Shown: positions 3,125 to 62,468 of the stretch, piece after piece
How the letters are laid out: every line of letters starts with the position of its first letter
Position numbering within the stretch: the first letter of the stretch is position 1
Assembly: GCA_045636605.1 (NCBI GenBank)
Contig: JAZTXV010000017.1
Span: 62,614-126,613 of the forward strand
DNA length: 64,000 bases
Origin: Eubacteriales bacterium
GTDB lineage: Bacteria > Bacillota > Clostridia > Oscillospirales > CAG-272
Reading direction: 5' to 3'
Made by a program: the position numbers and the translations under genes
Notes under the pieces: generated by a model
Databases searched by the model: none
What the model was told of the DNA's origin: nothing
Seen by the model: the letters and a program-made list of their open reading frames with translations, nothing else

Positions 3125-5494
3125 TTATTGATACGGGAAGAAATCTCCGTTTTCAAAGAAGCCCTTGACGGTTGTGTCATTGGCTGTCAGAGTTGCCTCT
3201 CTTGCGTTGCCTGTTGATTGGAATACGCCCTTAATAATAGCGCCCGTATGCAAGGTAAGAGTTCCCTCGCCGTTCCAATCTCCAAGAGCCCAGCGTCCCT
3301 CATAGATATCGCCGTTTGTGTATCTCATCACACCTTGACCGTGGGGGAAATTACGCTTATTTCTTTCTCCCTCGTATGAGCCGCTCATGGTTGTATCGAA
3401 CATAACGTAGGTGCTATCGGAGTCGAGTGCGCCACCGTCATTCTCGGAGTCACACACGGACTCATCCTCGCTTGGAGAGTATGTCGGGCAATCGTCACTT
3501 TCAAATGAATCGTCACCCGTCAACGAATCGCAAGATGGGTAATCGTCATTTGATGAGCATATCGGAGCATCCTCGTCGGGAATTTCGATGCCGTCAAGGC
3601 AGTCGAGGTCGTCAAGTGTCGGAATAGTGCGCTTTCTTGGAAGCGGAGCCCTGTTTATCGGCTCGTCACCCTCGATAAATTCACCGTCAACGAGCTGTCC
3701 GTAGCGAACCCTTTCCATATTTTCAAAGAATGTAACGTTAGAGGAATTGTTGCACGATTGCCAGAAAGCAGAGAAGATTGAGCCGTTAACCCAAAGCACA
3801 CCCTTGCCGTGCCAAGCATCGCCTCTCCATTCGCCACGGTAAGCCTTGCCGTTTGCATAAATCATAATGCCCTTGCCGTGTCTGCTTCCGTTTTTCCAGT
3901 TGCCCGAATATACACTGCCGCTTGCGTATGTCATAATACCCATGCCGTGTAGCTCAAGGCCGCAAATTTCACCCTTATATGTGTCGCCCGAGGGATATTT
4001 TACTCTGCCGATAGCCTTGTCATCCTCAATGAAATTTCCCAAAATAACCGTGCCGTCGTGCAAGGTATATCTGCCTATTCCAAAGGGTACATCATCCTTC
4101 CAAGCTCCCTCGTAAACGTCGCCGTCGGAGCTTATATATCTGCCGTAACCGTTAAAGCAGCCGTCAACGAAATCGCCCTCGTATGACGAGCCGTCGCTCC
4201 AAACGTATTTGCCACTACCGTTCGGCTTTCCATTAACGGAATCGCCCTCGTAGTAGCTGCCATCGTCCCAAACGTATTTGACCTTATCGTTCGGCTCATG
4301 GTCAGACTCCTCATAGTCAGACTCCTCGTAGTCAGACTCCTCATAGTCAGACTCCTCGTAGTCGGAATCCTCGTAGTCGGAATCCTCGTAGTCAAGGTCG
4401 TCATAGCCGTCATTTTCGTCGTCAATGTCACGCTTGCTGTCGTCGCCGTCAAGCTCGCACGCATCAACCTCATCGTCCTCGTCTGCGACAGGTGGCTCCT
4501 GCGGATCTGTGGAGTCCGTTGTGTTACAGCAGCCGCAAACTGTTTCTCCGTTAAGAATTTTATTTAAATTAGATGCAATTATCTCGGCATCACGGGAAAA
4601 ATCTGTCGAATTTGAAGGGTTTACCTCGGCTTCCTCGTCAATTTCCTCAATAAGATTGCCGTTTTCCCAAATGCCTCTTTTTACCTCGCCGCTTGCGAGA
4701 AAAAGCTCGCCGTAGCCGTTAAAGTCGCCGTCAACGAACTCACCGACATATGTGCCGGCAGAGGAAACGCTTCTGCCGGTGCCGTTTGCATAGCCGTTTC
4801 TGAATTCACCCTCGTAGTATGAGCCGTCGTCGAAGGTGATTCGTCCAACGCCGTTGGGAATTCCGCCTTCGTCAGAGTCGCCCTCATATGTAAAGCTTGC
4901 CCTTTCGTGCTCACTTAAGCTATCGCTTGAGTCAATAGACGGACATCCAAAGGCACGAATATCATTGTCAGCACGGCTTGAGCGCTTGTCAAACGGCTCA
5001 CGACAGTGGTCGCCCTCAACGAACTCACCGTTCTTGAAGGTACCCTCAAACCTTTCACCGCTTGGCAAAATAAGTCTGCCTATTCCGTGATATACGCCGC
5101 AGCTGAAGCCACCCTCGTAGGTTGTACCGTCAGGCAAGGAAAGCCTGCCCATTCCGTCAAAGCTTCCTTGAACGAATGCGCCCTCGTAGGCTGTGCCGTC
5201 ACCGAGAGTGAGCCTGCCCATTCCGTCGTAAAGACCGTTAAGGAAGCTTCCCTCATAGTTCACACCCGTTTCAAGAGAGAGCTTGCCAAGACCGTTGAAA
5301 TCGCCGTTGACAAAGTTACCCTCATAGGCAGCGCCCCTGGAAATCGCCAAAACGCCATAGCCGTTAAACTCACCGTTCACAAAGCCACCCTCGTAAACGA
5401 GCTCATTAGGCTTTGTAAAAACGCCTCTGCCCTCGGGAAGATTGTTTTGGTTTACGGCTCCGTCGTAGATTCCGTTTTTAAAATCAAATTTCAT
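3125..5494 (-). CDS. MORN-repeat protein with an acidic DYE(D/E)S linker
   Basis: About 20 YEGxxxxGxxxGxG MORN units in two blocks. I prefer the start at M23 of the track ORF (ATG at 5494, AAAGGA RBS). No signal peptide. Confidence 0.85.
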   Translation of the reverse strand: MKFDFKNGIYDGAVNQNNLPEGRGVFTKPNELVYEGGFVNGEFNGYGVLAISRGAAYEGNFVNGDFNGLGKLSLETGVNYEGSFLNGLYDGMGRLTLGDGTAYEGAFVQGSFDGMGRLSLPDGTTYEGGFSCGVYHGIGRLILPSGERFEGTFKNGEFVEGDHCREPFDKRSSRADNDIRAFGCPSIDSSDSLSEHERASFTYEGDSDEGGIPNGVGRITFDDGSYYEGEFRNGYANGTGRSVSSAGTYVGEFVDGDFNGYGELFLASGEVKRGIWENGNLIEEIDEEAEVNPSNSTDFSRDAEIIASNLNKILNGETVCGCCNTTDSTDPQEPPVADEDDEVDACELDGDDSKRDIDDENDGYDDLDYEDSDYEDSDYEESDYEESDYEESDYEESDHEPNDKVKYVWDDGSYYEGDSVNGKPNGSGKYVWSDGSSYEGDFVDGCFNGYGRYISSDGDVYEGAWKDDVPFGIGRYTLHDGTVILGNFIEDDKAIGRVKYPSGDTYKGEICGLELHGMGIMTYASGSVYSGNWKNGSRHGKGIMIYANGKAYRGEWRGDAWHGKGVLWVNGSIFSAFWQSCNNSSNVTFFENMERVRYGQLVDGEFIEGDEPINRAPLPRKRTIPTLDDLDCLDGIEIPDEDAPICSSNDDYPSCDSLTGDDSFESDDCPTYSPSEDESVCDSENDGGALDSDSTYVMFDTTMSGSYEGERNKRNFPHGQGVMRYTNGDIYEGRWALGDWNGEGTLTLHTGAIIKGVFQSTGNAREATLTANDTTVKGFFENGDFFPYQ
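4301..4405 (-). repeat. In-frame 15-bp tandem repeat, 7 units
   Basis: gtcagactcctc(a/g)ta x4, gtcggaatcctcgta x2 and one degenerate unit. Encodes DYEDSDYEDSDYEESDYEESDYEESDYEESD. Confidence 0.9.
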
Positions 5495-5577
5495 ATATTG
5501 TCCTTTCGTGTGGGGCTGTATCACGGAATACGCCGTGACAGAGCCCCCTGTAAAAAGCAAAATTAAGTTAGCGGCAA

Positions 5578-7779
5578 TTAGTCCTCAGATGGATAGAAGG
5601 CGCCGTAGCGCATAGAGCCACGAACAGATGTGCCACCGTCAATGAGCTCAAGAGAATCGCTATCCTTGAAATCTCTGAACATTCCCGTGTAGGTATGACC
5701 GTCACTTGATATGTAAACGCCCTTTCCAAGCCACTTGCCGTATGACCAGAAGCCGTTATATATATCTCCGCTTGCATAGCGCATCAAGCCCTTGCCGTGA
5801 GGCTGTCCGTAGTTGTTTCTTGCGCCCTCGTATGTGTCCTCGGCGGGTGGGGGCAGAGAGGAGTCGGGAATTTCAATTTCTGCATCATCGTCGGATTCCT
5901 CGTCGCCAAAGCCGCTAAGAATACCGAAGCCGTCATCGTCGTCATCATCGTCATCGGAGAAGAAGCTCATAAAGCCCTTGCCCGATTCCTCCTCGTTACG
6001 CTTAACGGGAGCCTCTGATGAAGCTGCGGTGCCTGATGTGAATACATCGTCATTTGTCTCAACGGGAGTGTTGACGGGCTCGTTCATCACAACATCGTCA
6101 ACGGGTGTGTCGAAAATTTCATCGTCGATCTCCTCGACGGAAATTACGGGAGCCTTTGCGCTCGGAGTCGGACGTGACGGTGCGTGGATTGCACCAGGTC
6201 TTGACATAGGAGTCTTTGTTCCCGTGCTGCCCGCAGGTCTTGCAGGTCTTGTGGGTGCCGCAGGCCTTGTAGGAGCGGTCGGAGCAGGCCTTGAAGAAGC
6301 GCTCGGCCTTGAAACAGAGGGCCTTGCAAATGATGAACCCGAGCTCGAAGCGGATGCTGCGGAGCTTCCTTGGAACTCGCCCTCTATCCATTCGCCCTCT
6401 TGAACCGTACCATCGGCAGATGTTAGCTTGCCGAAGCCGTGATAGTTGTCATTTTTGAACTCGCCCTCGTAAACGTCGCCGTCTGCATATACACGTATGC
6501 CGTGACCGTTGAAGTCGCCGTCAACGAATTCGCCCTCGTAGTAGCTGTTTTCGCTCCATACGTACTTACCGAAGCCCTGACGCTTGCCCTCAAAGTATTC
6601 ACCCTCGTAGTAGGAGCCGTCCTCAACCCATACGTATTTACCCTTACCGTGCTGCTTATCGCTTTTCCATTCGCCTATGTAGTAATTTCCGCTTTCCCAA
6701 ACACGCTTACCGTGACCGTTGAAATCGCCGTCAACGAAATCACCCTCGTAGTAGCTGTTCTCGTTCCAAACGTATTTACCCTTACCGCAACGCTTGCCCT
6801 CAACGTAGTCGCCCTCGTAGTAGGAGCCGTCGTCAGCCCAGGTATATCTACCTCTGCCGTGCTGGTTGTCGTCCTTCCATTCGCCGACATAGTAGTTTCC
6901 GCTTTCCCAGACACGCTTACCGAAGCCGTTGAAGTTGCCGTCGGCAAACTCGCCCTCATAGTAGCTGTGCTCATTCCAAGCATAGCAGCCGTGTCCTGTA
7001 CGCTGTCCGTCAACGAAATCACCGTCGTAATAGGAGCCGTCCTCCCAGGTATATGTTCCGCTTCCGTGACGCTTATCATTACGCCACTCACCCTCATAGT
7101 GTGAGCCATCGGGCCACGAATAAACACCGAAGCCCTCGAAGTTACCGTCAACAAACTCACCCTCATATCGCTTTCCGTCGCTCCATTTAAGCACGCCGTA
7201 GCCCTCGGGCCTTCCGTTAGAGCCAACAGGGCCGGTATATGTAGCGCCCGCAAAGGAAATTGTTCTTGACGAGCCTCTTGATGAGTGTCTTGGCGGAGTT
7301 CTCTTTGTCGGTGGCGGAGCAGTCCTTGACGGAACCTTCGCAAAGGAATTTCCGCTCATATCAAATGAGTCCGTTGAGCTGAAATCCTGTGTCCAGTCGT
7401 AGCCGCCATCCTCGGGGACTTCAATCTCGGGCTCGACCAATTCGTCATCGTCGTCATCGTCGTCAAAGTTTTCGACGGTAGTGCCGAAATCGTTCATCCA
7501 ATCGTCGCTTGCGGAGCTGAAATCGTTTGTCCAATCATAGCTCGAGCTTGACGTGCGTGACGAGCCGAACGTATCGTTTGTCCATTCGCCCTCCTGCTCG
7601 GTGCCGTTTGCGAATTTCATTTTGCCGTGGCCGTGTCTTTTTCCGTTTTGCCACTCGCCCTCGTAAACGTCGCCGTTATTCCAATAAAATGTTCCCTTGC
7701 CGTGAGGCTCATCGGCGTCATTAAACTCGCCCATATAGAAGCCGTCGTCGGTTGTGATAGATTTGTTATTCGTTTCCAT
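5578..7779 (-). CDS. MORN-repeat protein with Pro/Ser/Ala-rich and poly-Asp linkers
   Basis: Many YEGE(F/W)xxGxxxGxG units. AAGGGGA RBS. Starts 20 nt after the upstream paralog's stop. Confidence 0.85.
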   Translation of the reverse strand: METNNKSITTDDGFYMGEFNDADEPHGKGTFYWNNGDVYEGEWQNGKRHGHGKMKFANGTEQEGEWTNDTFGSSRTSSSSYDWTNDFSSASDDWMNDFGTTVENFDDDDDDDELVEPEIEVPEDGGYDWTQDFSSTDSFDMSGNSFAKVPSRTAPPPTKRTPPRHSSRGSSRTISFAGATYTGPVGSNGRPEGYGVLKWSDGKRYEGEFVDGNFEGFGVYSWPDGSHYEGEWRNDKRHGSGTYTWEDGSYYDGDFVDGQRTGHGCYAWNEHSYYEGEFADGNFNGFGKRVWESGNYYVGEWKDDNQHGRGRYTWADDGSYYEGDYVEGKRCGKGKYVWNENSYYEGDFVDGDFNGHGKRVWESGNYYIGEWKSDKQHGKGKYVWVEDGSYYEGEYFEGKRQGFGKYVWSENSYYEGEFVDGDFNGHGIRVYADGDVYEGEFKNDNYHGFGKLTSADGTVQEGEWIEGEFQGSSAASASSSGSSFARPSVSRPSASSRPAPTAPTRPAAPTRPARPAGSTGTKTPMSRPGAIHAPSRPTPSAKAPVISVEEIDDEIFDTPVDDVVMNEPVNTPVETNDDVFTSGTAASSEAPVKRNEEESGKGFMSFFSDDDDDDDDGFGILSGFGDEESDDDAEIEIPDSSLPPPAEDTYEGARNNYGQPHGKGLMRYASGDIYNGFWSYGKWLGKGVYISSDGHTYTGMFRDFKDSDSLELIDGGTSVRGSMRYGAFYPSED

Positions 7780-7799
7780 AGCTTTCCCCTTAAATTATC

Positions 7800-9230
7800 T
7801 TAATCGGCACGAAAATCGCCGTCAGTCATCGTTCCGTGTATAGCTCTTCCGTTCAAGAAAAGAGTTACGTTCAAGCTGCGCTTTGTTGACGAGAAGTAGC
7901 CCTTATATACCTTTCCATCGGGCAACGTATATGTGCCCTGCTTGTACCATTCGCCGTAAGCCCAGCCACCGTCATAGGTTGAGCCGTCTGCGTAGAACAT
8001 CTTTCCTCTGCCGTGTGGCTGTCCCTTGAAGTTCTTTTCACCGTCGTAAACGTCGCTTTGCTCGTCGGGAGTAAACTCAAAGCCCGTCATAGAGCCGTCT
8101 GTTTCCCTTCCGCCGATAGTCTTTATAACCATCTCGGACTCTCCGCAGTCGCTCCAATAGCTTGAATAATAGGTAACGCTCTCGCCGTTCTCGGAGGTTG
8201 TATATGTACCCGAGCCACGCCAAGCGCCGTCCTCCCATTCGCCATCAAAGAAATTGCCGTCAGCATATGTGTATTTACCCTTGCCGAAGAAGGTATTTTC
8301 ACGGAAATCACCCTCGTAAACGTCACCGTTTTCCATAGTGAGTGTTCCGTGACCGTTGATTTGGTCGTTTTCGTATTCGCCATCGTAGCTTGAGCCGTCG
8401 GAGAAATTACAGTGCGCCTCTCCTGAGAGCTGACCGTCAACGAATGTGCCCTCGAAGACGTCACCCGAATCCCAGGTCTTTTTACCACGGCCGTTTATAG
8501 CGCCGTTTTCCCAATCACCCTCATAGGTGCATTCGTATTCGTCCCAGCGAATAGAGCCGAAGCCGTGCGGAAGTCCGTCTGAGTTTATCTGTCCCGCATA
8601 GATTCCGCCGTCATATTCGTAATCCTCAACGTCGGAGAGGGAGTCCTCGGAAATCTCCTCAAATTCGTCCTCGTCGTCAACCAAATCGGTTGCCGCATCA
8701 AGAATTTCGTTCTCAAGGTCGGTAAAGTCAAGGCCGTCATCCTCGCCCTCGTCATTATCGGTAACCTCGTTGTACGTGTCGTTGCCCATAGGGAAGTCGT
8801 CAACGTCTGTCGGATTTTCCGCCATTGTTGTTCCGAAATCGTTTGTCCAATCGTAGCCGCTGTCGCCGGAGTCATCGCAATCGTAATCATCGCTTCCGCT
8901 TATCGTGCTATCGTCGCCCTCGTCGTCCTCGTCGTCAAAATTTTCAACGGTCGTGCCGAAATCGTTCATCCAATCGTCGCTCGTGGAGCTGAAATCGCTT
9001 GACCAATCGTTTGAGTTGAACGAGTCGTATGACCATTCGCCCTCCTGCTCGGTGCCGTTTGCGAATTTCATTTTTCCGTGGCCGTGTCTTTTTCCGATTT
9101 GCCACTCGCCCTCATAAACGTCTCCGTTGTTCCAATAAAATGTTCCTGTGCCGTGCGGCTCGTTTGCGTCGTTAAAGTCACCCATGTAGAAGCCGTCGTC
9201 AGTTGTGATGGATTTGTTGCTGCTTGCCAT
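7800..9230 (-). CDS. MORN-repeat protein (paralog, first gene of a three-gene set)
   Basis: MORN units. The N-terminal ~100 aa are nearly identical to the 5578-7779 product. GGGGGA RBS. Confidence 0.85.
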   Translation of the reverse strand: MASSNKSITTDDGFYMGDFNDANEPHGTGTFYWNNGDVYEGEWQIGKRHGHGKMKFANGTEQEGEWSYDSFNSNDWSSDFSSTSDDWMNDFGTTVENFDDEDDEGDDSTISGSDDYDCDDSGDSGYDWTNDFGTTMAENPTDVDDFPMGNDTYNEVTDNDEGEDDGLDFTDLENEILDAATDLVDDEDEFEEISEDSLSDVEDYEYDGGIYAGQINSDGLPHGFGSIRWDEYECTYEGDWENGAINGRGKKTWDSGDVFEGTFVDGQLSGEAHCNFSDGSSYDGEYENDQINGHGTLTMENGDVYEGDFRENTFFGKGKYTYADGNFFDGEWEDGAWRGSGTYTTSENGESVTYYSSYWSDCGESEMVIKTIGGRETDGSMTGFEFTPDEQSDVYDGEKNFKGQPHGRGKMFYADGSTYDGGWAYGEWYKQGTYTLPDGKVYKGYFSSTKRSLNVTLFLNGRAIHGTMTDGDFRAD

Positions 9231-9529: not shown

Positions 9530-11575
9530 TTAGTCTAAAGCTCTTGGAGCAACCTTGGCGGCGATTTGGGCGGGAACCTCCTCGTAGCGAACGAAATGGA
9601 AGGTGAAGTTGCCACGGCCCTGCGTCATAGCACGGAGAGCGATTACGTAGTCAACCATTTCCGCCTTGGGAACCTCTGCCTCAACAACGGTATATTTCGG
9701 ATGCTTGAGGTCGGGCTCCATGCCGAGAACTCTGCCACGGCGCTTATTAAGGTCACCCATAACATCACCGACCATCGACTCCGGAATGCTTACCTTAAGC
9801 GTACCGATAGGCTCAAGAAGAACGGGATTTGCCGCTGTCAGCTCCTTGTAAGCCAGGCGAGCCGCAAGCTTGAAGGAAAGCTCGTTGGAGTCAACGTCGT
9901 GATACGAGCCACCCGTGAGGTCTGCCGCAAGGTTTACCATAGGATAGCCGAGAAGCACGCCGACCTTCATAGCCTCCTCAAGTCCCTTTTCAACTGCAGG
10001 GAAGTAGCCCTTCGGCACCTCGCCGCCGACTACGCTTGTAGTAAAGGTAAGACCGTCATTTTCGCTGTGTGAGAAGGTAATCTTAACGTGACCGTACTGA
10101 CCTGCGCCACCCGATTGCTTCTTGTGCTTGCCCTCAACGCTGATTGTTTTCTTAATTGTTTCACGATATGCAATCTTCGGAGTTTGAAGCTTGATTGTTA
10201 CGCCATATCTCGTCTTAAGCTTGCAAACGACTGTATCAAGGTGAACGTCACCGATACCCTTGATAAGAAGCTCGCCCGTTTCGACGAAGTTTTCAAACTT
10301 GACGGTTTTGTCCTCGTCAAGAATTTTTGCAATAGCAGTAGCAACCTTGTCCTCGTCTCTTGCCTCGGTCTTGATTGCCATTGTCATATTAGCCTCTGGG
10401 AATACGATAGGAGCATATTCGATAGAGGATGTAAGGCACAGTGTGTCGTTTGTGTTAGTGTTTTGAAGCTTTGCGATAACACCGATATCACCGCAGGCAA
10501 GAGAGTCAACCTCTGTTTGCTTCTTACCGCAGATGGTGTAAATCTTGGAGAATTTCTCCTCGGCGCCGGTGTTGACATTCTTAAGAACCATGTCCTTCTT
10601 AAGCTCACCGTTCATAACCTTGAAGAAGGAGAAGCGACCAACGAACGGGTCTGCTATGGTCTTGAATACGAACAGGCGACACTCGCCGTCACGCTCGATT
10701 GCGATATCGGAGCCGTCGGGAGCCTTTTCAACTTTTTTTGCCGTATGTCTTGGGAATGAGTTGGCAATAGATGTAAGAATGGAGTAGATGCCACGCATGT
10801 TTTCCGATGAGCCACACCATACGGGAACGATAGAGCCTGTAATCATACCCTCGTGAAGCGCATTTGCACACTCTTCGGGGCTAAAGCGCTCGCCCTCGAA
10901 GAACTTTTCGAGCATTTCCTCGTTGGTTTGCGCGCACGCTTCCATGAAGATTTCCTCATATCTTTGAGCAATTTCAAGTCTTGAAGGAGTCATTTCCTCC
11001 TCTTGACGCTCGCCGTTTGGCAGGTAACGGAAGCATTTCATTGTCATGAGGTCAACCATCATAACGCCGTTTGCTTCCTTTATGGGAATAAATACGGGAC
11101 AAAGAGCATTTCCGAACTCCTCACGAAGCTGATTGAAAACTTTGTCAAAGTCCGCATCGGGATCGTCGCACTTGTTGATAAAGAAGGCTCTGGGAAGACC
11201 TGCGTCAACTGCGTTGTACCAGGAAAGCTCCGTTCCAACCTGCATTCCCGATTTTGCATCTACATTGATAAGGCACGCATCTGAAACACGAAGTGCGCTC
11301 GCAACCTCACCTGCAAAGCCAAGGAAGCCCGGGCAGTCAAGTATATTTATCTTAACGTTGTTCCATTCAAGGTTACAAACCGAAAGACCGATAGAGATTT
11401 GTCTTTTGATTTCCTCGGGATCGTAGTCGGATACCGTGTTTCCGTCACAAACTCTGCCAAGACGGTCTGTTGCGCCTGCACGCCAGAGCATAGACTCGAT
11501 AGTTGCTGTCTTACCGCTTCCGCTATGTCCGACAAGACACACGTTTCTGATGTCGTTTGTTAAGAATTTTGCCAT
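9530..11575 (-). CDS. Elongation factor G family GTPase (EF-G paralog)
   Basis: G1 GHSGSGKT, G3 DCPG, G4 NKCD, then EF-G domain II-V-like sequence. 681 aa. Confidence 0.85.
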   Translation of the reverse strand: MAKFLTNDIRNVCLVGHSGSGKTATIESMLWRAGATDRLGRVCDGNTVSDYDPEEIKRQISIGLSVCNLEWNNVKINILDCPGFLGFAGEVASALRVSDACLINVDAKSGMQVGTELSWYNAVDAGLPRAFFINKCDDPDADFDKVFNQLREEFGNALCPVFIPIKEANGVMMVDLMTMKCFRYLPNGERQEEEMTPSRLEIAQRYEEIFMEACAQTNEEMLEKFFEGERFSPEECANALHEGMITGSIVPVWCGSSENMRGIYSILTSIANSFPRHTAKKVEKAPDGSDIAIERDGECRLFVFKTIADPFVGRFSFFKVMNGELKKDMVLKNVNTGAEEKFSKIYTICGKKQTEVDSLACGDIGVIAKLQNTNTNDTLCLTSSIEYAPIVFPEANMTMAIKTEARDEDKVATAIAKILDEDKTVKFENFVETGELLIKGIGDVHLDTVVCKLKTRYGVTIKLQTPKIAYRETIKKTISVEGKHKKQSGGAGQYGHVKITFSHSENDGLTFTTSVVGGEVPKGYFPAVEKGLEEAMKVGVLLGYPMVNLAADLTGGSYHDVDSNELSFKLAARLAYKELTAANPVLLEPIGTLKVSIPESMVGDVMGDLNKRRGRVLGMEPDLKHPKYTVVEAEVPKAEMVDYVIALRAMTQGRGNFTFHFVRYEEVPAQIAAKVAPRALD

Positions 11576-11638: not shown

Positions 11639-11686
11639 TTTATTTAAAGTAAATCGGGCGCTTGCCCAAATAAACCTCATATCATA

Positions 11687-11715: not shown

Positions 11716-11802
11716 CCCTTTTTGTGTAATTTTGTTAAAATATACGAAATTGCACCTGACAATTTGTGCAATTTGCACAACAAAAAAGCGCACCAGCAAA
11801 AG

Positions 11803-14194: not shown

Positions 14195-16183
14195 TTATGC
14201 TACTGTGTATTCACCAAGGCCTTCCTTGCCTGATGTGATTTGTGCAGGGGTAAGAATGCTTTGAAGCTTAACCGTGTAGAGAACTGTGTCGCCTCTTGTT
14301 ACCTTGCTTGCCATAGGAGACGAGATTGCGGAGTCCTCTGCGCCGACATACTCCTTTTGGAGAAGCTGGGCGGTGCTCATATCGTCATCTGTGTAAGCAT
14401 AGCCTGCAAATACAAGCTCAAGCGATTCGTGACCTGTCATACCGTTAACGGACACATTACAATTCTTGTAAGTGATGTCAAGAGCAACCTGAAGCGCACC
14501 CTTTGTTGCGTTCAATGTGCCGTCTGCATTAAATATACCATCAGAGCCAAGGTACTTAGGATTGAAGATTACAACGCCGAAGCCAACGCTCTTGCCTGTG
14601 AGTGTCTCGTAGGTAGCAAGGCTATCGTGGCTTACCTGGTAGCCTGTTGCAATTCCGTTGTTATCGGGGCCTGCTGAGTAGCCTGATGCGGTAAAGATAG
14701 CAGAGTAGGATGTCTTTTGGTTAGTTGCAGCATTCCAAACGCTAAATTCCTTGTCAAAGCCGTTAAAGGAGATAAAGGTTGCGGGCACGCTTGTGGCTGT
14801 TGCGCCATAGTAAATTGTCTTTGTGCCTGCGTTCTCGGGGTTAAAGTCGCTAAACGGAGCAACACTCCAGCCGCTCCAAGCGCTTGCCATAGCATTGGCA
14901 TCTGCCTCGGTTCCCTTTATGATAAGGTCAGCCTTTGAGGGCTTTGATGTAACAGATGTCCAGTTGCTTGAGGAAATAATATACTTAAGTGAGCCGCAAT
15001 CCACGAATGTGTTGTTGCCGGAGCTTACCATTGTGTCGGGGAATACGATGTATTCGAGATTGTTACAGCTATAAAAGGCACCGTCTGTACCGATGTTGGT
15101 AAGCACCTTGTCAGCCGCACCGTTTTCACCCTTGATTGTACCGTTGAGAATTACAAGGCTTGTGATGTCTGTGTCACGAAGGGAGTTGTTTCCTATGTAT
15201 GTGATTGTATCAAACACAAGGTCGCCTATAATATTCGGTCCCCAGAATGCAGAACTGCCAATGTATGTTATTGTACGGGGAAGACCGTTAAATACAACAT
15301 TTTTTGAAACGCTGTTGAATGCGTATTCGGAAATCATCTCGACATTCTCGGGGAGAATGACGCTTGTAAGGTTTTTACAGTTCTGGAACGCACGAGGTCC
15401 AACATTCTTTAGCGGAGCACCCGACATATCAACGCTTGTGATAAGCGTATCACGGAATGCGTTTTCGCCAAGAGATTTGATGTTTGGTAGCTTAATGTCG
15501 CCTGAAATTTTTGTATTGTAGAAGCCTCTGCCGATTTCTTCAATGGATTCAATGCTGTTTATTGTTGCAAGTGACGAGCAGCCGTTGAATGCGGCGTAAA
15601 TTCTCTTGATGTTCTTAGAGAAAAGAACGGTGTGGAGATTAGAGTCATACTCGAAGCAGTATTGACCGAGCTGGACAACATTGGATTTTGACATATCAAC
15701 ACTCAAAAGTGTCTTTGTATTGTAAAACTCCGCATTGGAAAAGCTTATCTCGGCAGTGTAATCCTCGCCTGTTGAAGGGTTGTAGCCACGAGCCTCAATT
15801 TCAACCGTTTCAAGGCACTTGAGCTGTCTGAATACATGGTTTCCGATGCTTTTGACCGTCTTTGGAATGAATACCGATACAACAGGGGAGTTAGAGCCTC
15901 CGTTTGCGCCAAAGGCACTGTCGGCAACTGCGGTTACAACATATTTTTCGTCGGTTGTGCCGTCGCCGTCCTTATCGTAATTAACGATTTCGGGGATAAC
16001 GACATTGGTAAGAGTACCGCTTGTTCTGTTTTCGGTGTTTACCGTTGCAGTTCCGTCAAAGCCGGGATAAGCGTCGGTTTTGGTGAACGAGTAATAAATG
16101 CCGTCAACCTCAACCGCACTTACACTGACAGCCAAAAGGCAAACAGCGAAAAGCACCGTAACAAAAAGTAGTAGCTTTTTCAT
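14195..16183 (-). CDS. Secreted BspA-type leucine-rich-repeat (LRR_5-like) surface protein
   Basis: Signal peptide MKKLLLFVTVLFAVCLLAVSVSA. Repeated I/LPxxVxxIGxxAFxxCxxL units. Confidence 0.8.
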   Translation of the reverse strand: MKKLLLFVTVLFAVCLLAVSVSAVEVDGIYYSFTKTDAYPGFDGTATVNTENRTSGTLTNVVIPEIVNYDKDGDGTTDEKYVVTAVADSAFGANGGSNSPVVSVFIPKTVKSIGNHVFRQLKCLETVEIEARGYNPSTGEDYTAEISFSNAEFYNTKTLLSVDMSKSNVVQLGQYCFEYDSNLHTVLFSKNIKRIYAAFNGCSSLATINSIESIEEIGRGFYNTKISGDIKLPNIKSLGENAFRDTLITSVDMSGAPLKNVGPRAFQNCKNLTSVILPENVEMISEYAFNSVSKNVVFNGLPRTITYIGSSAFWGPNIIGDLVFDTITYIGNNSLRDTDITSLVILNGTIKGENGAADKVLTNIGTDGAFYSCNNLEYIVFPDTMVSSGNNTFVDCGSLKYIISSSNWTSVTSKPSKADLIIKGTEADANAMASAWSGWSVAPFSDFNPENAGTKTIYYGATATSVPATFISFNGFDKEFSVWNAATNQKTSYSAIFTASGYSAGPDNNGIATGYQVSHDSLATYETLTGKSVGFGVVIFNPKYLGSDGIFNADGTLNATKGALQVALDITYKNCNVSVNGMTGHESLELVFAGYAYTDDDMSTAQLLQKEYVGAEDSAISSPMASKVTRGDTVLYTVKLQSILTPAQITSGKEGLGEYTVA

Positions 16184-16240
16184 AAATCTCTCCTTGCAGG
16201 GTAGCCCCTGCGGGCATATAAAATATAATTATGTAATGAT

Positions 16241-16269
16241 ATAATACCACATAAAAAATAGTATGTCAA
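16241..16269 (-). promoter_or_regulatory. Promoter of the LRR surface protein gene
   Basis: Minus strand: TTGACA, 17-nt spacer, TGgTATTAT (extended -10). Confidence 0.6.
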
Positions 16270-16287
16270 GACAAATTGCACAAAAAT

Positions 16288-16299
16288 GGGGGGGGGGGG
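16288..16299. repeat. G12 (C12 on the minus strand) homopolymer tract
   Basis: Counted directly as 12 consecutive G. It lies 18 nt upstream of the LRR-gene -35 box. Confidence 0.95.
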
Positions 16300-16359
16300 C
16301 TTGATTTTTGTTAAAATTGCACAAAAGAATTGCCACTCTTGAAAAAGCCCTTGACATAC

Positions 16360-16388
16360 TTGACTTAGAGCGTCAATTGTGTTAAAAT
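16360..16388 (+). promoter_or_regulatory. Promoter of the HAD hydrolase gene
   Basis: TTGACT, 17-nt spacer, TGtTAAAAT. Confidence 0.55.
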
Positions 16389-16415
16389 ACAACCAATACA
16401 CAAAAGGAGCAAAAA

Positions 16416-17021
16416 ATGATAAAGAATGTAGTTTTTGATTTTGGACAGGTGCTCGTTCACTTTGTTCCCGAATATATGGTTGGCGTTTACGAAAAAAATC
16501 CCGAGGACGCAAAATTGCTTTGCGAGGTTGTCTTTGACCGTCTTTATTGGGATAAGCTTGATGCAGGCACAATAGAGAACGAGGAGGTTATGGATGCCGT
16601 AAGGGCACGCTTGCCTGAGCGTCTGCACGAGGTTGCGAGCAAAATTTACTATAATTGGATTTACAACATTCCCGAGCTTGACGGAATGAACGACCTCGTT
16701 TTACACCTCAAAAACGACCACAGGGTAGGGCTTTTTCTCCTTTCAAATATTTCAAAATACTTTGCCGAGCACCAAGGTGAAATTCCAATTCTTTCCCACT
16801 TTGATGGGCTTGTGCTCACGGGCCCTATCGGCATTGTAAAGCCGACAAGGGAGATTTTTGCATACCTGTGCGAGAAATTCGACCTTAACCCCGACGAAAC
16901 AATTTTTATTGACGATAACGAAAATAACATAAAGGGTGCGTCCGCCTTTGGTATTCACACCTACCACTTTGACGGAAACGCACAAGGATTAAGAGAATAT
17001 CTTGACAAAATTCTGAAATAA
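16416..17021 (+). CDS. HAD-superfamily hydrolase (subfamily IA-like)
   Basis: VVFDFGQVLV motif I, LSN motif II, and a C-terminal FIDDNENNIKGA motif III/IV. Confidence 0.8.
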   Translation: MIKNVVFDFGQVLVHFVPEYMVGVYEKNPEDAKLLCEVVFDRLYWDKLDAGTIENEEVMDAVRARLPERLHEVASKIYYNWIYNIPELDGMNDLVLHLKNDHRVGLFLLSNISKYFAEHQGEIPILSHFDGLVLTGPIGIVKPTREIFAYLCEKFDLNPDETIFIDDNENNIKGASAFGIHTYHFDGNAQGLREYLDKILK

Positions 17022-32633: not shown

Positions 32634-34586
32634 TTAATTTTCTGCGTAATAGAAGGTCACGGTCATTGTTTCACTGCCTTGGAACTTTTCGCCCTGTTGG
32701 ATTTCGTAAAGCGCTCCGTTTTCGTCAACGTAGAACTCGCCCTTTGTCACAACAGCTTGAAGCGGATCCTCGAAAATAACACGGTCGTTAATTTCGATAT
32801 AGTTATAGGTGTAGCCGTCGGGAGTTTGCTCGTTATAAATGGTAGCCGTGCCGTCCTCGCCAAAGACAATTGTTGCCTCGGCGGTTGCGTTAAGAGCAGT
32901 CAAGGCGGAGTCGAAATCGGCCTTTGTTTCTGCGTTGCCGATAGCATTTTTCCAATTCTCGTCGGTGATTTGGTCAAGGTAGCCCTGTGATTTGAGATTG
33001 GAGAGCATGCTCCAGAGCCATTCTGTGGAAACGACCTTGGCATCTGTCACAACAACTGTTTTGCCACGGAAATTGTCATTTACGCTTATCCAGAAGGCAA
33101 CCTCGCCGTTTTCGTCATAGTGCCACAGAAGCTCCCTTGAATAGAGATATTCGGAAATCTTTTGCTCGTGTCTTGAATAGAAGAACACCTTGCCTGAAAT
33201 TACGGCATTGAGCGTGTTCCAACGGCTCTCACCGTCCTCGTAGAAAACATATTGAAGCTCACAGCCGTCAAATGCGCTCTCCGATATGCTCGAAACGGTT
33301 GACGGAATAATGATTTCCTCAAGCGAGGTACAGCCATCAAACACCTCGTCACCGATTGTCTTAACGCCCTTAAGAGATATTTCGCAAAGTGCGGAGCAGC
33401 CCTTTAGCGCACCTGCGTCAAGCGCGATAACAGATGACGGAAGGGTGAGGGTTTGAATATCCGTGCCTGCAAGCGCAGTGCCGATTGACACAATGCCCTC
33501 GGGGACAACAACGCTTTGCTGCACGCTTAGCACGCTATGAATTGCTTTAGCGGTAAGGTCATAAAGAATACCGTTTGCAAACGAATATTTTTCGCTGTCG
33601 CTCGGGAGCGTAAGGGTGCTTGGCGTACCGTCAAATGCGCCCATCGCAATTACGGTGTCCTTGCCTAAAATTACAACCTCGTCAACATTTTCGCCAACAA
33701 ATGTGTCTTGCGGAATTGCTATAATGGAGCTTGGAAGTGTAAGAGTGCCAATTGTGCCGTTGCCCGATACGAGCTCTCGCTTTATTTGTGTAACGGGCTT
33801 GAAATTGCACATAGCGGGGATTTCAACGGAGTCTATATCCTCGTCCACCTTTATTTGAATGAGTGTAGTAAAATCCTCATAGTCCTCTGTTTTGAAGAAA
33901 AGTCCGACATAGGTCCATTTTGCGAAAATATCGGTAACTCTGCCGTCAAGCTTGGTGCTTGATGTAAGCGGAGTGGTAAATGCCTCGTCGCAGAAGAGGC
34001 CGTCAAGCTTGTATCCGTTGTGATATAGGTTGTCAAGGCTTGTAAGGTCATTTGGCATAAGACCTGTCTTGATTTCCTCGCCACTAATGAGCGCCTGGCA
34101 TACATATCTGTAAAAATCAATAGCAGATACCTCAAGGGACCAATCAACATTTCCAACCACGATTCCATCAAAGCCGTGAACGGCTATGCTTGAGCTTGAG
34201 TATTGCCAATCAAGAGTGCAGGACGCATAATATTCTGTGAATTTGCCATTTTCGTCCATACCCTCGCTACCCTTGCGGAAGATTGCCTCGGTAAAGGGGA
34301 ACTGCTCACCCGGAGCGACACTGATTCCGCCCTCGGCAAATTCCCAATTAAGGTATTTAATTCCTGCTACCTCGGGTGCGGTAGGTGCGGTTAGTATGTC
34401 ACCTGCATTACAGGTCATCGAAATTACCTCGTCACCTGTTCCTGTAAAGTAGTGAAAATCAATGAAATAACGGGTTGTTACCTCGCCATCGCCACCGCTC
34501 TTATCACCACCGTTATCACAGCCCGCAAAGCAAAGCAGAGTGGCAAGCGCCAAGGCAAGCGCGATTATTATCTTTGTTATTTTCAT
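32634..34586 (-). CDS. BspA-type LRR lipoprotein
   Basis: Lipobox LLCFAGC|DNG. LTLPSSxIAI...F.GC..L LRR_5-like units. Confidence 0.8.
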   Translation of the reverse strand: MKITKIIIALALALATLLCFAGCDNGGDKSGGDGEVTTRYFIDFHYFTGTGDEVISMTCNAGDILTAPTAPEVAGIKYLNWEFAEGGISVAPGEQFPFTEAIFRKGSEGMDENGKFTEYYASCTLDWQYSSSSIAVHGFDGIVVGNVDWSLEVSAIDFYRYVCQALISGEEIKTGLMPNDLTSLDNLYHNGYKLDGLFCDEAFTTPLTSSTKLDGRVTDIFAKWTYVGLFFKTEDYEDFTTLIQIKVDEDIDSVEIPAMCNFKPVTQIKRELVSGNGTIGTLTLPSSIIAIPQDTFVGENVDEVVILGKDTVIAMGAFDGTPSTLTLPSDSEKYSFANGILYDLTAKAIHSVLSVQQSVVVPEGIVSIGTALAGTDIQTLTLPSSVIALDAGALKGCSALCEISLKGVKTIGDEVFDGCTSLEEIIIPSTVSSISESAFDGCELQYVFYEDGESRWNTLNAVISGKVFFYSRHEQKISEYLYSRELLWHYDENGEVAFWISVNDNFRGKTVVVTDAKVVSTEWLWSMLSNLKSQGYLDQITDENWKNAIGNAETKADFDSALTALNATAEATIVFGEDGTATIYNEQTPDGYTYNYIEINDRVIFEDPLQAVVTKGEFYVDENGALYEIQQGEKFQGSETMTVTFYYAEN

Positions 34587-59667: not shown

Positions 59668-60012
59668 TGTGCTACGCACAATGCGGAGTGAGGAATGCGG
59701 AATGCGGAATGCGGAATGAAATTGCTTCGTGGGTGATTTTTAAATCAAGGCTAAACGAAAGCGGGAATTGCCTCAGGCGCTTGCCTGCGGAGTGCGGAAT
59801 GCGGAATGAAATTGCTTCGTGGGTGATTTTTAAATCAAGGCTAAACGAAAGCGGAGATTGCCTCGGACGCTTGTCCGTGCGGAATGCGGAGTGCTACGCA
59901 CAATGCGGAATGCGGAATGAGGAGTGCGGAGTGAGGAATGAAATTGCTTCGTGGGTGATTTTTAAATCAAGGCTAAACGAAAGCGGAGATTGCCTCGGAT
60001 GCTTATCCGTGC
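59668..60012 (+). repeat. Array of three ~80-nt structured repeats interleaved with a GGAATGC heptamer microsatellite
   Basis: Cores start at 59713, 59803 and 59935 (ggaatgaaattgcttcgtgggtgatttttaaatcaaggctaaacgaaagcgg...). Heptamers run at 59692-59712. gtgctacgcacaatgcgga is duplicated at 59669 and 59891. Confidence 0.9.
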
Positions 60013-60128: not shown

Positions 60129-62468
60129 ATGGAATACAAGTACGGCTATTTCAATGAAGCGGGAGACGAATTTGTAATAACCTCTCCCAAAACACCAAGA
60201 CCATTCGACAACTTTCTTTTTAACGACTCGTGCTATGCAAACGTGCATCAGACGGGTATTGGATGCTTCGATTACCAAATCGACGGTAAGGAGGGTATTC
60301 AGCTTTACACGGGCGTAGGAAGAATTTGTGACTACGACGTTTTCGGAAAGGACCACCTATACAACAGACTTATATTCATTCGTGACAACGAAACGGGCGA
60401 ATTTTGGACTCTCAACTGGGAGCCCGTGTGCCATCCGTATCAGGAATATAAGTGTGTGCAAGGACTCGGTTACACAGACATAACCAACAAAACAAACGAC
60501 CTTGTGTCTAAAATGCGTATATTTGTACCTATCGGCACAGACGCAGTTGAGATGTGGAAGCTCTCATTCAAGAACGAAACGGGCAAGAAGAAATCATATT
60601 CAATCTTTACATATAGCCAAATACAGTTCCGCTTCAAGTGGGGCTTTGACAGCTACGGCGATACAATGTACCGCGCAACTCGCTTTGACAAGGAAAGAAA
60701 CACCTTCTATATGACAAAGCACCCGTTCATTAAGCCACATAACTACCTTACTGCATTTATGACCGCAGATAAGGAAATCGTTGGCAGTGACGGATGTCAG
60801 AACGTGTTCGTTGGCGAATACGGAACAATAGGCGCACCCGAGGTTGTAAGAGAGGGTGCTTGCAAGAACTCGATAGGCTCTGCAAACGCAACAATATGCA
60901 CGCTTCAGTTCAATATCGAGCTTGATGCGGGAGAAAGCGACGAGATTTCTCTTATGCTTGGCGTAGGTAGCGAGGAAAACGATTCAATCGCCCTTGCAAG
61001 CAAGTACCTTGCAAATCAAGACAAGTATTTCGAGGAAATGAAATCGCACTACAAGGCGATGTATAACAAAAACCACATTACCACAACCGACGAGCATTTT
61101 GACCGTCTTATCAACTACTGGGGCAAGCACGCAACGCACTTTGGCGCAACCTGGTGCCGTTGGGGCTATAATGGCTACCGTGATATCGTTCAACACGGCT
61201 TCGGTGTTGTTTCCTTCAAGACGGAGAGAACAAAGCAGATTTTGAAGGAGGCAATTCAAAATCAGTACGCAAGCGGAATGGCAGTTCGTGGTTGGAATCC
61301 CGTTGATACAAAGGCGTACTCCGACTCTGCGCTTTGGCTTGAATTTACACTCACCGCTTACTTAAGAGAAAGCGGAGATATCGACTTTTTGAACGAGGTT
61401 TACCCCTTCAGAGATGAGGGCGAGGCAACTGTTCTCGGTCATATGGACAGAGCCCTTGACTTCCTTGAGTCGAATAAGGGTGAGCACGACCTTCTTCTTA
61501 TCAAATTCGGCGACTGGAATGACTCTCTTACCGGCGTAGGTAAGGAGGGTAGAGGTGAGAGCGTATGGCTCTCCATCGCATATGCACAGGCGCTTCTCGA
61601 AATGGCAGAGCTTGCTCGTTTTATGGGCGATGAGGCTAAGGAAAAGAACTACCTCTCTCGCCGTGAGGCAATAATGAAGGCGATCAATGAGAATGCTTGG
61701 GACGGCGAATGGTACAGACGCTGCTATACCGATAACGGCTCACCTCTTGGAAGCGTACAGAACAAGTATGCAAAGATGTTTATGGAGCCACAGTGCTGGT
61801 CACTCATTTCGGGCGTTGCAAGCGAGGAAAGAGCAAACACCATAATCAGAGCTATGGACGAGAGAATGCTCACTCCTGTTGGATATCTCCTTCTTACCCC
61901 ATCCTATAAGGAGTTCGATGCTACAATCGGACGTATCTCCTCAATGGAGCCGGGCATTTGCGAGAACGGAACAATTTATTCACATACAAACATCTGGATG
62001 ATTTTGGGACTCCTTAAATACGGCAAGGCAGACCTTGCATACGAGCTGTTCAAGAAGATAGCTCCCGGCTATATCGTAGGCGACAACACCGAAATCAAGA
62101 ACAAGTGCTTGCCATATATGTTCTCGAACTGCTACTTTGGCCCCGAGCATAAGAATAGCGCATTCCAGATGGAATATAGCTGGATTACAGGCTCTGTTGC
62201 TTGGTACACAAACACAATGGAGAACTATCTCGTTGGCGCAAGAGCAACCTATGAGGGACTCGTAATCGAGCCACATCTCCCCTTTGAGAGCGCAAAAATG
62301 AAGCGTCTTTTCCGTGGCGCAGAGTACGAAATCACCGTATCGAACCCACAAAAGAAGGCAAAGGACTACACTCTTGAAATCACAGTTGACGGCAAAGCAA
62401 TCGACGGCAACATTGTTCCCGCCTTCGCAGACGGCAAAACTCATACGGTTTGCGTAATCGTAAAATAA
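60129..62468 (+). CDS. GH94-like glycoside phosphorylase (cellobiose/chitobiose phosphorylase family)
   Basis: The N-terminus YGYFNEAGDEFVITSPKTPRPFDNFL is collinear with cellobiose phosphorylases. Catalytic-region FGDWNDSL motif. 779 aa. Confidence 0.75.
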   Translation: MEYKYGYFNEAGDEFVITSPKTPRPFDNFLFNDSCYANVHQTGIGCFDYQIDGKEGIQLYTGVGRICDYDVFGKDHLYNRLIFIRDNETGEFWTLNWEPVCHPYQEYKCVQGLGYTDITNKTNDLVSKMRIFVPIGTDAVEMWKLSFKNETGKKKSYSIFTYSQIQFRFKWGFDSYGDTMYRATRFDKERNTFYMTKHPFIKPHNYLTAFMTADKEIVGSDGCQNVFVGEYGTIGAPEVVREGACKNSIGSANATICTLQFNIELDAGESDEISLMLGVGSEENDSIALASKYLANQDKYFEEMKSHYKAMYNKNHITTTDEHFDRLINYWGKHATHFGATWCRWGYNGYRDIVQHGFGVVSFKTERTKQILKEAIQNQYASGMAVRGWNPVDTKAYSDSALWLEFTLTAYLRESGDIDFLNEVYPFRDEGEATVLGHMDRALDFLESNKGEHDLLLIKFGDWNDSLTGVGKEGRGESVWLSIAYAQALLEMAELARFMGDEAKEKNYLSRREAIMKAINENAWDGEWYRRCYTDNGSPLGSVQNKYAKMFMEPQCWSLISGVASEERANTIIRAMDERMLTPVGYLLLTPSYKEFDATIGRISSMEPGICENGTIYSHTNIWMILGLLKYGKADLAYELFKKIAPGYIVGDNTEIKNKCLPYMFSNCYFGPEHKNSAFQMEYSWITGSVAWYTNTMENYLVGARATYEGLVIEPHLPFESAKMKRLFRGAEYEITVSNPQKKAKDYTLEITVDGKAIDGNIVPAFADGKTHTVCVIVK

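Follow-up and report, generated by a model that had tools for sequence, protein, structure and literature searches.

A homopolymer of 12 G at positions 16288-16299 (plus strand; read as C12 on the coding strand of the LRR gene) is a plausible though unproven candidate for a repeat that tunes the expression of a BspA-type LRR surface protein, and is not a demonstrated on/off switch. It is located in the window, by which we mean the whole stretch of 64 kb that was analysed, between two operator-like sites upstream of the LRR gene (local sequence of the module: ...gtcaagacAAATTGCACAAAAAtGGGGGGGGGGGGcttgatttttgttaAAATTGCACAAAAGaattgcc...). We assign a rough probability of 0.4 to the reading that the tract is a slippage-prone spacer which is maintained by selection, which would set the phasing of the two putative operators and which may tune LRR transcription in the manner of a rheostat.

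The tract is flanked by two divergently oriented genes. The LRR_5 protein of BspA type, which has 662 aa and an N-terminal signal peptide, is encoded on the minus strand (14195-16183), and its divergent neighbour on the plus strand (16416-17021) codes for a HAD-IA family hydrolase of 201 aa. By a consensus scan, the LRR gene was assigned a promoter on the minus strand at 16241-16269, TTGACA(16269)-17-TATTAT(16241), with the -35 box at 16264-16269, the -10 box at 16241-16246 and a TG before the -10 box. The same scan placed a HAD promoter at 16360-16388 on the plus strand, TTGACT(16360)-17-TAAAAT(16388), which also has a TG before the -10 box. An initial interpretation made without database searches (the sequence-only reading) had named both neighbours, the LRR promoter, the G12 tract, its distances of 18 nt and about 60 nt to the -35 boxes of the LRR and the HAD gene, and a 13-nt direct repeat bracketing it at 16273-16285 and 16314-16326. 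All of these were recovered: the tract coordinates are exact, the distances are 18 nt and 60 nt, and the two repeat copies are identical. Homologs of the region are labelled as MAGs of Clostridia, Oscillospiraceae or Ruminococcaceae, and one related MAG is from roe-deer colon.

Within the window, the tract is a far outlier among the G runs. Runs of 1 to 6 G occur 9290, 1866, 409, 63, 8 and 1 times, respectively, there are none with a length of 7 to 11, and there is a single one with a length of 12. The longest C run has 5 bases, and G12 is the sole G/C run longer than 6. When the approximately five-fold drop per extra base is extrapolated, the expected number of 12-G runs in the window is about 1e-4. 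In about 200 kb, made up of the window and loci L001-L025, G12 stands alone among G/C runs of at least 8 bases. Two properties of promoter SSR contingency loci are found here, namely a position near the promoter of a surface-protein gene (an LRR_5 protein with a signal peptide) and an uninterrupted G/C homopolymer of at least about 8 bases, which is seen in the window (G12), in the closely related strain L008 (G11) and in the more distant lineage L027 (G10). A tandem-repeat scan of the window gave no other contingency-like SSR adjoining a surface-protein gene. It is the single tract of this kind that was seen, which gives no indication that phase-variable genes form a set across the genome. 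A search against Rfam was without a match in 15900-16700, and over the full 64 kb it identified two tRNAs and nothing else.

The window contains several other repeats. At 59680-60010, in the intergenic region upstream of a gene for a GH94 glycoside phosphorylase-type protein (60129-62468), there are three tandem repeats of about 100-120 nt (TRF period 90), each headed by an array of 3-6 copies of AATGCGG and without a match in Rfam. Three consecutive MORN-repeat proteins of 811, 733 and 476 aa are encoded at 3125-9230, with internal DNA repeats of 210 nt and 15 nt. A second LRR_5 protein of 650 aa (32634-34586) has no homopolymer upstream.

The 13-nt direct repeat AAATTGCACAAAA, with a start-to-start distance of 41 nt, is part of two larger sites which resemble operators. 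The proximal one, R1, is a half-site (CAAATTGCACAAAAAT; 16272-16287, plus strand) which ends 2-3 nt from the LRR -35 box, and its degenerate half overlaps that box. The distal one, R2 (16305-16327, plus strand), includes the second repeat copy and is a degenerate full 7-1-7 palindrome, TTTTTGTtaAA-A-TTGCACAAAAG, with A/T runs. R1 and R2 also form an inverted repeat (16272-16287 and 16304-16319). The 9-mer AAATTGCAC occurs 7 times in the window as compared to 1.23 expected copies, and none of 100 shuffles reached 7. The full form of the site is the 7-1-7 palindrome TGTGCAA-W-TTGCACA with A/T runs (TTGTGCAA-W-TTGCACAA). In the window it is located at 11764-11780; L021 has two copies, and L006 also contains the site.

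The copy at 11764-11780 leads to a second locus, the promoter of a gene for an EF-G paralog (9530-11575, minus strand; NCBIfam EF-G subfamily). It had been pointed out from the letters that the motif recurs in the intergenic region 11747-11780, and there are indeed two copies of the 9-mer at 11747-11774. The full palindrome, here TTGTGCAA-T-TTGCACAA on the minus strand, is the distal site of a pair. The proximal copy (AAATTACACAAAA; 11720-11732, minus strand) is located 4 nt upstream of the -35 box TTGATA (11715), and the two members of the pair, 11762-11774 and 11720-11732, are 42 nt apart. The same pair is found in L004 (a Clostridia MAG from roe-deer colon; 2449-2503) upstream of the ortholog of the EF-G paralog, which has 85% amino acid identity; there the copies are 41 nt apart and the proximal one is 3 nt from the -35 box. 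As the intergenic regions of the window and of L004 cannot be aligned outside the motif pair, the motif can be considered a phylogenetic footprint. The leader of about 110 nt between the EF-G paralog promoter and the start codon contains a terminator-like hairpin with a T-run (11654-11669, minus strand), which may be an attenuator.

Motif pairs also occur elsewhere, with a distance of 40 nt in L005 and of 43 nt in L006 and L020. In total, start-to-start spacings of 40, 40, 41, 41, 41, 42, 43 and 43 nt were obtained, and in three contigs from the viral-contig collection the spacing is 25-33 nt. The 7-1-7 site TGTGCAA-W-TTGCACA is common to the LRR locus, the EF-G paralog promoter and phage-like contigs, and the module of two sites is found at unrelated promoters, with a conserved spacing and with conservation across species. 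The 13-nt repeats had been suggested to be possible regulator sites, and they do look like such putative sites, with a conserved spacing of about 41 nt. Slippage products, a target-site duplication or a mini-element as the origin of the repeats were ruled out, because other promoters and other genomes have the same motif pair with unrelated spacers. In several of these modules a G/C-rich block follows the first motif copy: CCCCGG in L005 and L020, GGGGCGG in L006 and CCAGCCCGC in L021. Neither the modules at the EF-G paralog promoters of the window and of L004 nor those in L022 and L024 have such a block.

Copies of the motif core TTGCACAA/TTGTGCAA are concentrated in the IMG/VR (putative phage) contigs L020, L021, L022, L024 and L025, the latter being the same contig as L006. 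There are 9 copies in 2.9 kb of L020 and 12 copies in 13 kb of L021, in several places as full palindromes. Scans of the ORFs beside the motif clusters in L006, L020 and L021 against Pfam and PHROGs gave nothing useful, and no regulator was found. A comparison by eye with sites for Spo0A, DnaA, Rex/CRP, Fur-type 7-1-7, MarA and sigma-54 did not result in a convincing match, and a search for the motif string in the literature returned primer matches only.

In addition, the R1-G12-R2 module is bracketed by a perfect 11-nt inverted repeat, AGTATGTCAAG at 16260-16270 and CTTGACATACT at 16350-16360, with 79 nt between the arms. The LRR -35 box is part of this inverted repeat, as is a second TTGACA (plus strand). 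The two closest clades (A and B, see below) have it, and the more distant lineages L011 and L027 lack it. An inverton was considered and rejected: all seven contigs show a single orientation, the segment has only 79 nt, and a recombinase was not noticed among the neighbouring ORFs that were scanned against Pfam.

Close strains were collected via the 90% cluster of the HAD protein, which has six members, five of which could be retrieved; about six independent close strains are represented in public data. Exact-protein look-ups of the HAD and LRR proteins from the window gave no contigs, and the upstream regions of L003 (HAD 83% identical) and L026 are unrelated. The close strains belong to two clades. 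In clade A, within which the HAD genes are 96-97.5% identical at the nucleotide level, the window has T-G12. L008 has T-A-G11, and the unique sequence on either side of it matches; L010 has at least G11. The Logan contig L010 begins with exactly G11 and breaks within the tract, and we infer that this fits a branch in the de Bruijn graph between G12 and xG11 alleles; it would be the one hint at length variation inside a single population. In clade B, where the HAD gene is about 90% identical to that of the window, the tract is interrupted (G5AG5/6), being T-G5AG6 in L009, T-G5AG5 in L007 and C-G5AG5 in L001, to which L002 is identical.

The tract is polymorphic among close strains, with AG11, at least G11, G5AG6 and G5AG5 alleles. 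Among the approximately six independent strains, the total length of the purine tract is 12 (window, L008, L009) or 11 (L001, L007). The distance between R1 and R2 is 41 nt in the window, L008, L009 and L027 and 40 nt in L001 and L007, and the consensus length of the spacer is nearly invariant (27 nt, and 26 nt in some strains). Most differences are substitutions: the uninterrupted runs of 12 (window), 11 (L008) and 10 (L027) result from base exchanges in a spacer whose length is unchanged. Within clades, variable columns are concentrated in the tract (3 of 26 columns there and 8 of 459 in the remainder; p = 0.017 in a one-sided Fisher test), and this variation includes one 1-nt indel inside a G run.

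Two deeper lineages have contrasting fates of the module. In L027, the neighbouring gene for an F420-ligase-like protein has 91.7% amino acid identity and about 82% nucleotide identity to its counterpart in the window. Over the 3′-terminal 751 nt of this gene, nucleotide identity is 82.3% between L027 and the window, 86.2% between L011 and the window and 83.4% between L011 and L027. Since this puts L027 at a slightly greater distance from the window than L011, L027 is probably the outgroup. Its module, tgtcaagtcATTTTGCACAAAAAtaGGGGGGGGGGcaatcaTTTTTGTgtAAATTGCACAAAAA, is found beside the same LRR promoter, and the spacer can be aligned without gaps over 27 nt (T-A-G10-C... as compared to T-G12 in the window). 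The G10 core is intact, while most other spacer bases outside the operator-like sites differ from the window. The distal site in L027, TTTTTGTGtAA-A-TTGCACAAAAA, is a better palindrome than the copy in the window. In this lineage there are about 250 nt of extra sequence between the module and the HAD promoter, which is thereby about 330 nt from the module, and the position of the module beside the LRR -35 box is unchanged. As the module has stayed there while the HAD promoter has moved, we consider it to belong to the LRR promoter. We take the tract to be under selection, since ten identical bases in a row would not be expected to persist neutrally at that divergence.

The sister lineage L011-L018 has neither the tract nor R2; eight of nine contigs cover the region and these are identical there. 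L011 retains both promoters and the gene order. When L011 (2890-2940) is aligned to L027 (1290-1370), about one repeat unit is missing from L011, corresponding to 42 alignment columns, and the missing unit consists of an R1-type repeat and the spacer with the G tract. This loss is consistent with a deletion between direct repeats. R1 is kept as cATTTTGCACAAAAA in L011 and L027 at an unchanged distance to TTGACA, and so are the position and the hexamers of the LRR promoter as well as the HAD promoter. A third promoter (TGtTAAAAT at 16309-16317) had been considered and was dropped, being without conservation in clade B or L027. Downstream in L011 and L027 there is a GC-rich palindrome, AATCTCGnnnGCGAGATT, which the lineage of the window lacks. 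Directly 5′ of the LRR ribosome-binding site, the window has a 5′UTR hairpin, GCAGGG-gcua-CCCUGC (16196-16211, minus strand; z = -2.4). L011 and L027 have another stem (GTCGAG-nnnn-CTCGAC) at the same place, so the structure has been kept while its sequence was replaced.

The LRR domain is mosaic and hypervariable between strains that are otherwise nearly identical. The window and L008 have 98-100% nucleotide identity over 15966-16665, which comprises the intergenic region and the start of the HAD gene, and 93-100% onward to 17102, but just 61-81% over 15276-15965. In the comparison to L001, the central LRR domain (14809-15898) has 58-84% identity while the N- and C-terminal parts are better kept. 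The break in identity near 15966, between the LRR domain (14809-15965) and its flank, is abrupt, which suggests recombination or diversifying selection. Genes that diversify in the way that this LRR gene does are the usual targets of stochastic expression control.

With a transcription start at about 16234, R1 would cover approximately -39 to -51, the C-tract -54 to -65 and R2 -71 to -93. The G12 tract would then be the core of a 27-nt spacer between two sites for one putative regulator, a half-site (R1) which abuts or overlaps the LRR -35 box and a full 7-1-7 palindrome (R2) flanked by A/T runs. The same layout of a distal full site and a proximal half-site, separated by about four helical turns (40-43 bp), appears to drive the EF-G paralog promoter. 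The tract may fix the phase of the strong distal site, and of the DNA upstream of it, relative to the weak promoter-proximal site. An uninterrupted run of G10-12 would be expected to slip, gains and losses of one G would generate subpopulations, and each such change could shift the cooperativity of the regulator and the contacts to the polymerase at the LRR promoter. As the tract is located upstream of R1 and of the -35 box, the geometry between R1 and the -35 box, and between the -35 and the -10 box, would be unaffected by its length. Because R1 lies between the tract and the -35 box, the tract could re-phase only R2 or more distal DNA relative to the complex of R1 and promoter. The expected outcome would be a stepwise tuning of LRR transcription and not a flip of the core promoter between on and off. 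With spacings of 40-43 nt occurring naturally, a shift by a single nucleotide would seem to be tolerated. Protein binding to the motif, slippage in vivo and the effect on transcription all enter this scheme as predictions from sequence. It is unlikely that every step holds, such that slippage would re-phase two putative operators of an undescribed regulator and would create graded subpopulations with respect to a hypervariable LRR adhesin in uncultured animal-gut Clostridia.

Some of the observations speak against the rheostat. The differences at the ends of the tract (G12, AG11, A-G10-C) are substitutions and not indels, the interrupted G5AG5/6 tract of clade B should slip far less, and neither the tract nor R2 is present in the sister lineage L011. 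We consider a static spacer to be nearly as likely as the rheostat: a G/C-rich spacer or structural element of fixed length in which the homopolymer is incidental, such as a rigid stretch of DNA with A/T tracts on both sides, or a site that another factor recognises. It is supported by the constant length of 27 nt in the window, L008, L009 and L027 with substitutions at the ends of the tract, by the non-homopolymeric G/C blocks at the corresponding place after the first motif copy in L005, L020, L006 and L021, and by the interrupted tract of clade B. However, a G/C block is not obligatory for the module, being lacking in the EF-G modules and in L022 and L024; an uninterrupted run of G10-12 will slip whatever its primary role; and the variation between close strains is concentrated in the tract. 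Less likely than the static spacer is that the tract is a neutral by-product, a G-rich spacer which has drifted to a homopolymer with neither its sequence nor its length having a role. The tract is outside the core promoter, and L011 keeps both promoters and the gene order after having lost it. Against this are the spacing, which is conserved at 41 nt, and the persistence of ten Gs in L027, where the neighbouring gene has only about 82% nucleotide identity and other spacer bases mostly differ.

A classic on/off phase variation, either by changing the geometry of the core promoter (as in porA, fetA and tp0126) or by frameshifting an ORF, is very improbable. A length of 12 is in the hypermutable range and the target is the gene of a surface protein, but SSRs of the porA/fetA/tp0126 type are located between the -35 and the -10 box, and the tract stands outside this interval, 18 nt further upstream than the -35 box, a geometry that contradicts this model. 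The sole ORF which crosses the tract (16180-16572, minus strand, 130 aa) overlaps both promoters and contains stop codons in L001 and L007, so it is not conserved; frameshifting via this ORF was ruled out, and the tract is not contained in any conserved reading frame. The least probable explanation is an assembly or sequencing artefact, be it poly-G from two-colour chemistry or a misjoin. Homopolymers are prone to errors, and the Logan contig L010 ends in the tract. Nevertheless, the tract has matching unique flanks on both sides in L008, and G-rich homologues are found in L001, L007, L009 and L027, which stem from different runs and assemblers, so the tract is a real feature of the genome, and L027 makes the observation stronger than it was from the letters alone. 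Taken together, the proposal of a candidate phase-variation switch stands in part: the tract is real, conserved, polymorphic among strains and linked to an LRR gene, which itself is hypervariable, but it is outside the core promoter. To call this a classic way to switch surface antigens was overstated, given this position, the nearly constant 27-nt spacer and the interruption in clade B. A stepwise modulator is more defensible than a switch, and the geometry argues for modulation at most.

For gut Firmicutes, invertible promoters are the usual explanation when surface proteins are under stochastic control, and such promoters control surface-protein genes in gut bacteria and in C. difficile. 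The module described here is similar to them in being bracketed by an inverted repeat but differs in its single orientation, its short length of 79 nt and in that a recombinase did not come up in the Pfam scan of neighbouring ORFs. A different principle is used by the C-tract of Bordetella pertussis fim2/fim3 and by the TAAA repeat of Neisseria meningitidis nadA, where the repeat determines at what distance or phase a site for an activator or a repressor lies from a surface-gene promoter. The fim tract is located between the activator site and the -10 box, and single-base changes act directly on promoter geometry. This is unlike the tract in the window, where the distance between the proximal site and the promoter is fixed and only the distal site would move.

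We consider the T-tract of sabA and the poly-G promoters of the tpr genes to be the closest mechanistic analogues. In Helicobacter pylori, the sabA gene has a promoter-proximal T-tract rheostat, for which length variation and an effect on expression have been demonstrated (Aberg et al. 2014, PMC4081817). That tract is directly at the -35 box and acts via UP-like elements and the alpha subunit of RNA polymerase, with no known DNA-binding proteins; its length has been proposed to change the axial alignment of upstream elements to the core promoter, with a multiphasic output (PMC4081817). Like sabA, the locus in the window has an intergenic homopolymer upstream of and adjacent to the -35 region of a putative adhesin gene. 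Unlike sabA, the G-tract is one operator-like site further out, between two putative regulator sites, and here slippage and an effect on expression are predictions. In Treponema pallidum, poly-G tracts of about 7-12 occur in the promoters of the surface or outer-membrane genes tprE, tprG, tprJ, tprL and tp0126, where one majority length and minority variants have been measured within isolates, and they are reported to act together with binding sites for the CRP homolog Tp0262 (PMC7864442). The tpr tracts are a few nt upstream of the transcription start and the one of tp0126 is between the -35 and the -10 box, while the tract in the window is at about -54 to -65. Also, T. pallidum is a spirochete with measured variation, and the host here belongs to the Clostridia, with such variation being a prediction.

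A literature search for promoter phase variation by homopolymeric tracts in Clostridia returned almost nothing. If the length of the tract does tune the LRR gene, uncultured gut Clostridia would have repeat-based tuning as an addition to their repertoire. The locus would represent a case of surface variation in gut Clostridia that is based on an SSR and not on inversion, and that is coupled to a new regulon. The length of the tract would then also be a simple marker, accessible at the level of reads, that tells in which state a host-interaction protein under rapid diversification is expressed. Irrespective of this, the paired 7-1-7 motif defines a testable regulon which would comprise the EF-G paralog, the LRR/HAD region and phage-like elements, under the control of a putative regulator.
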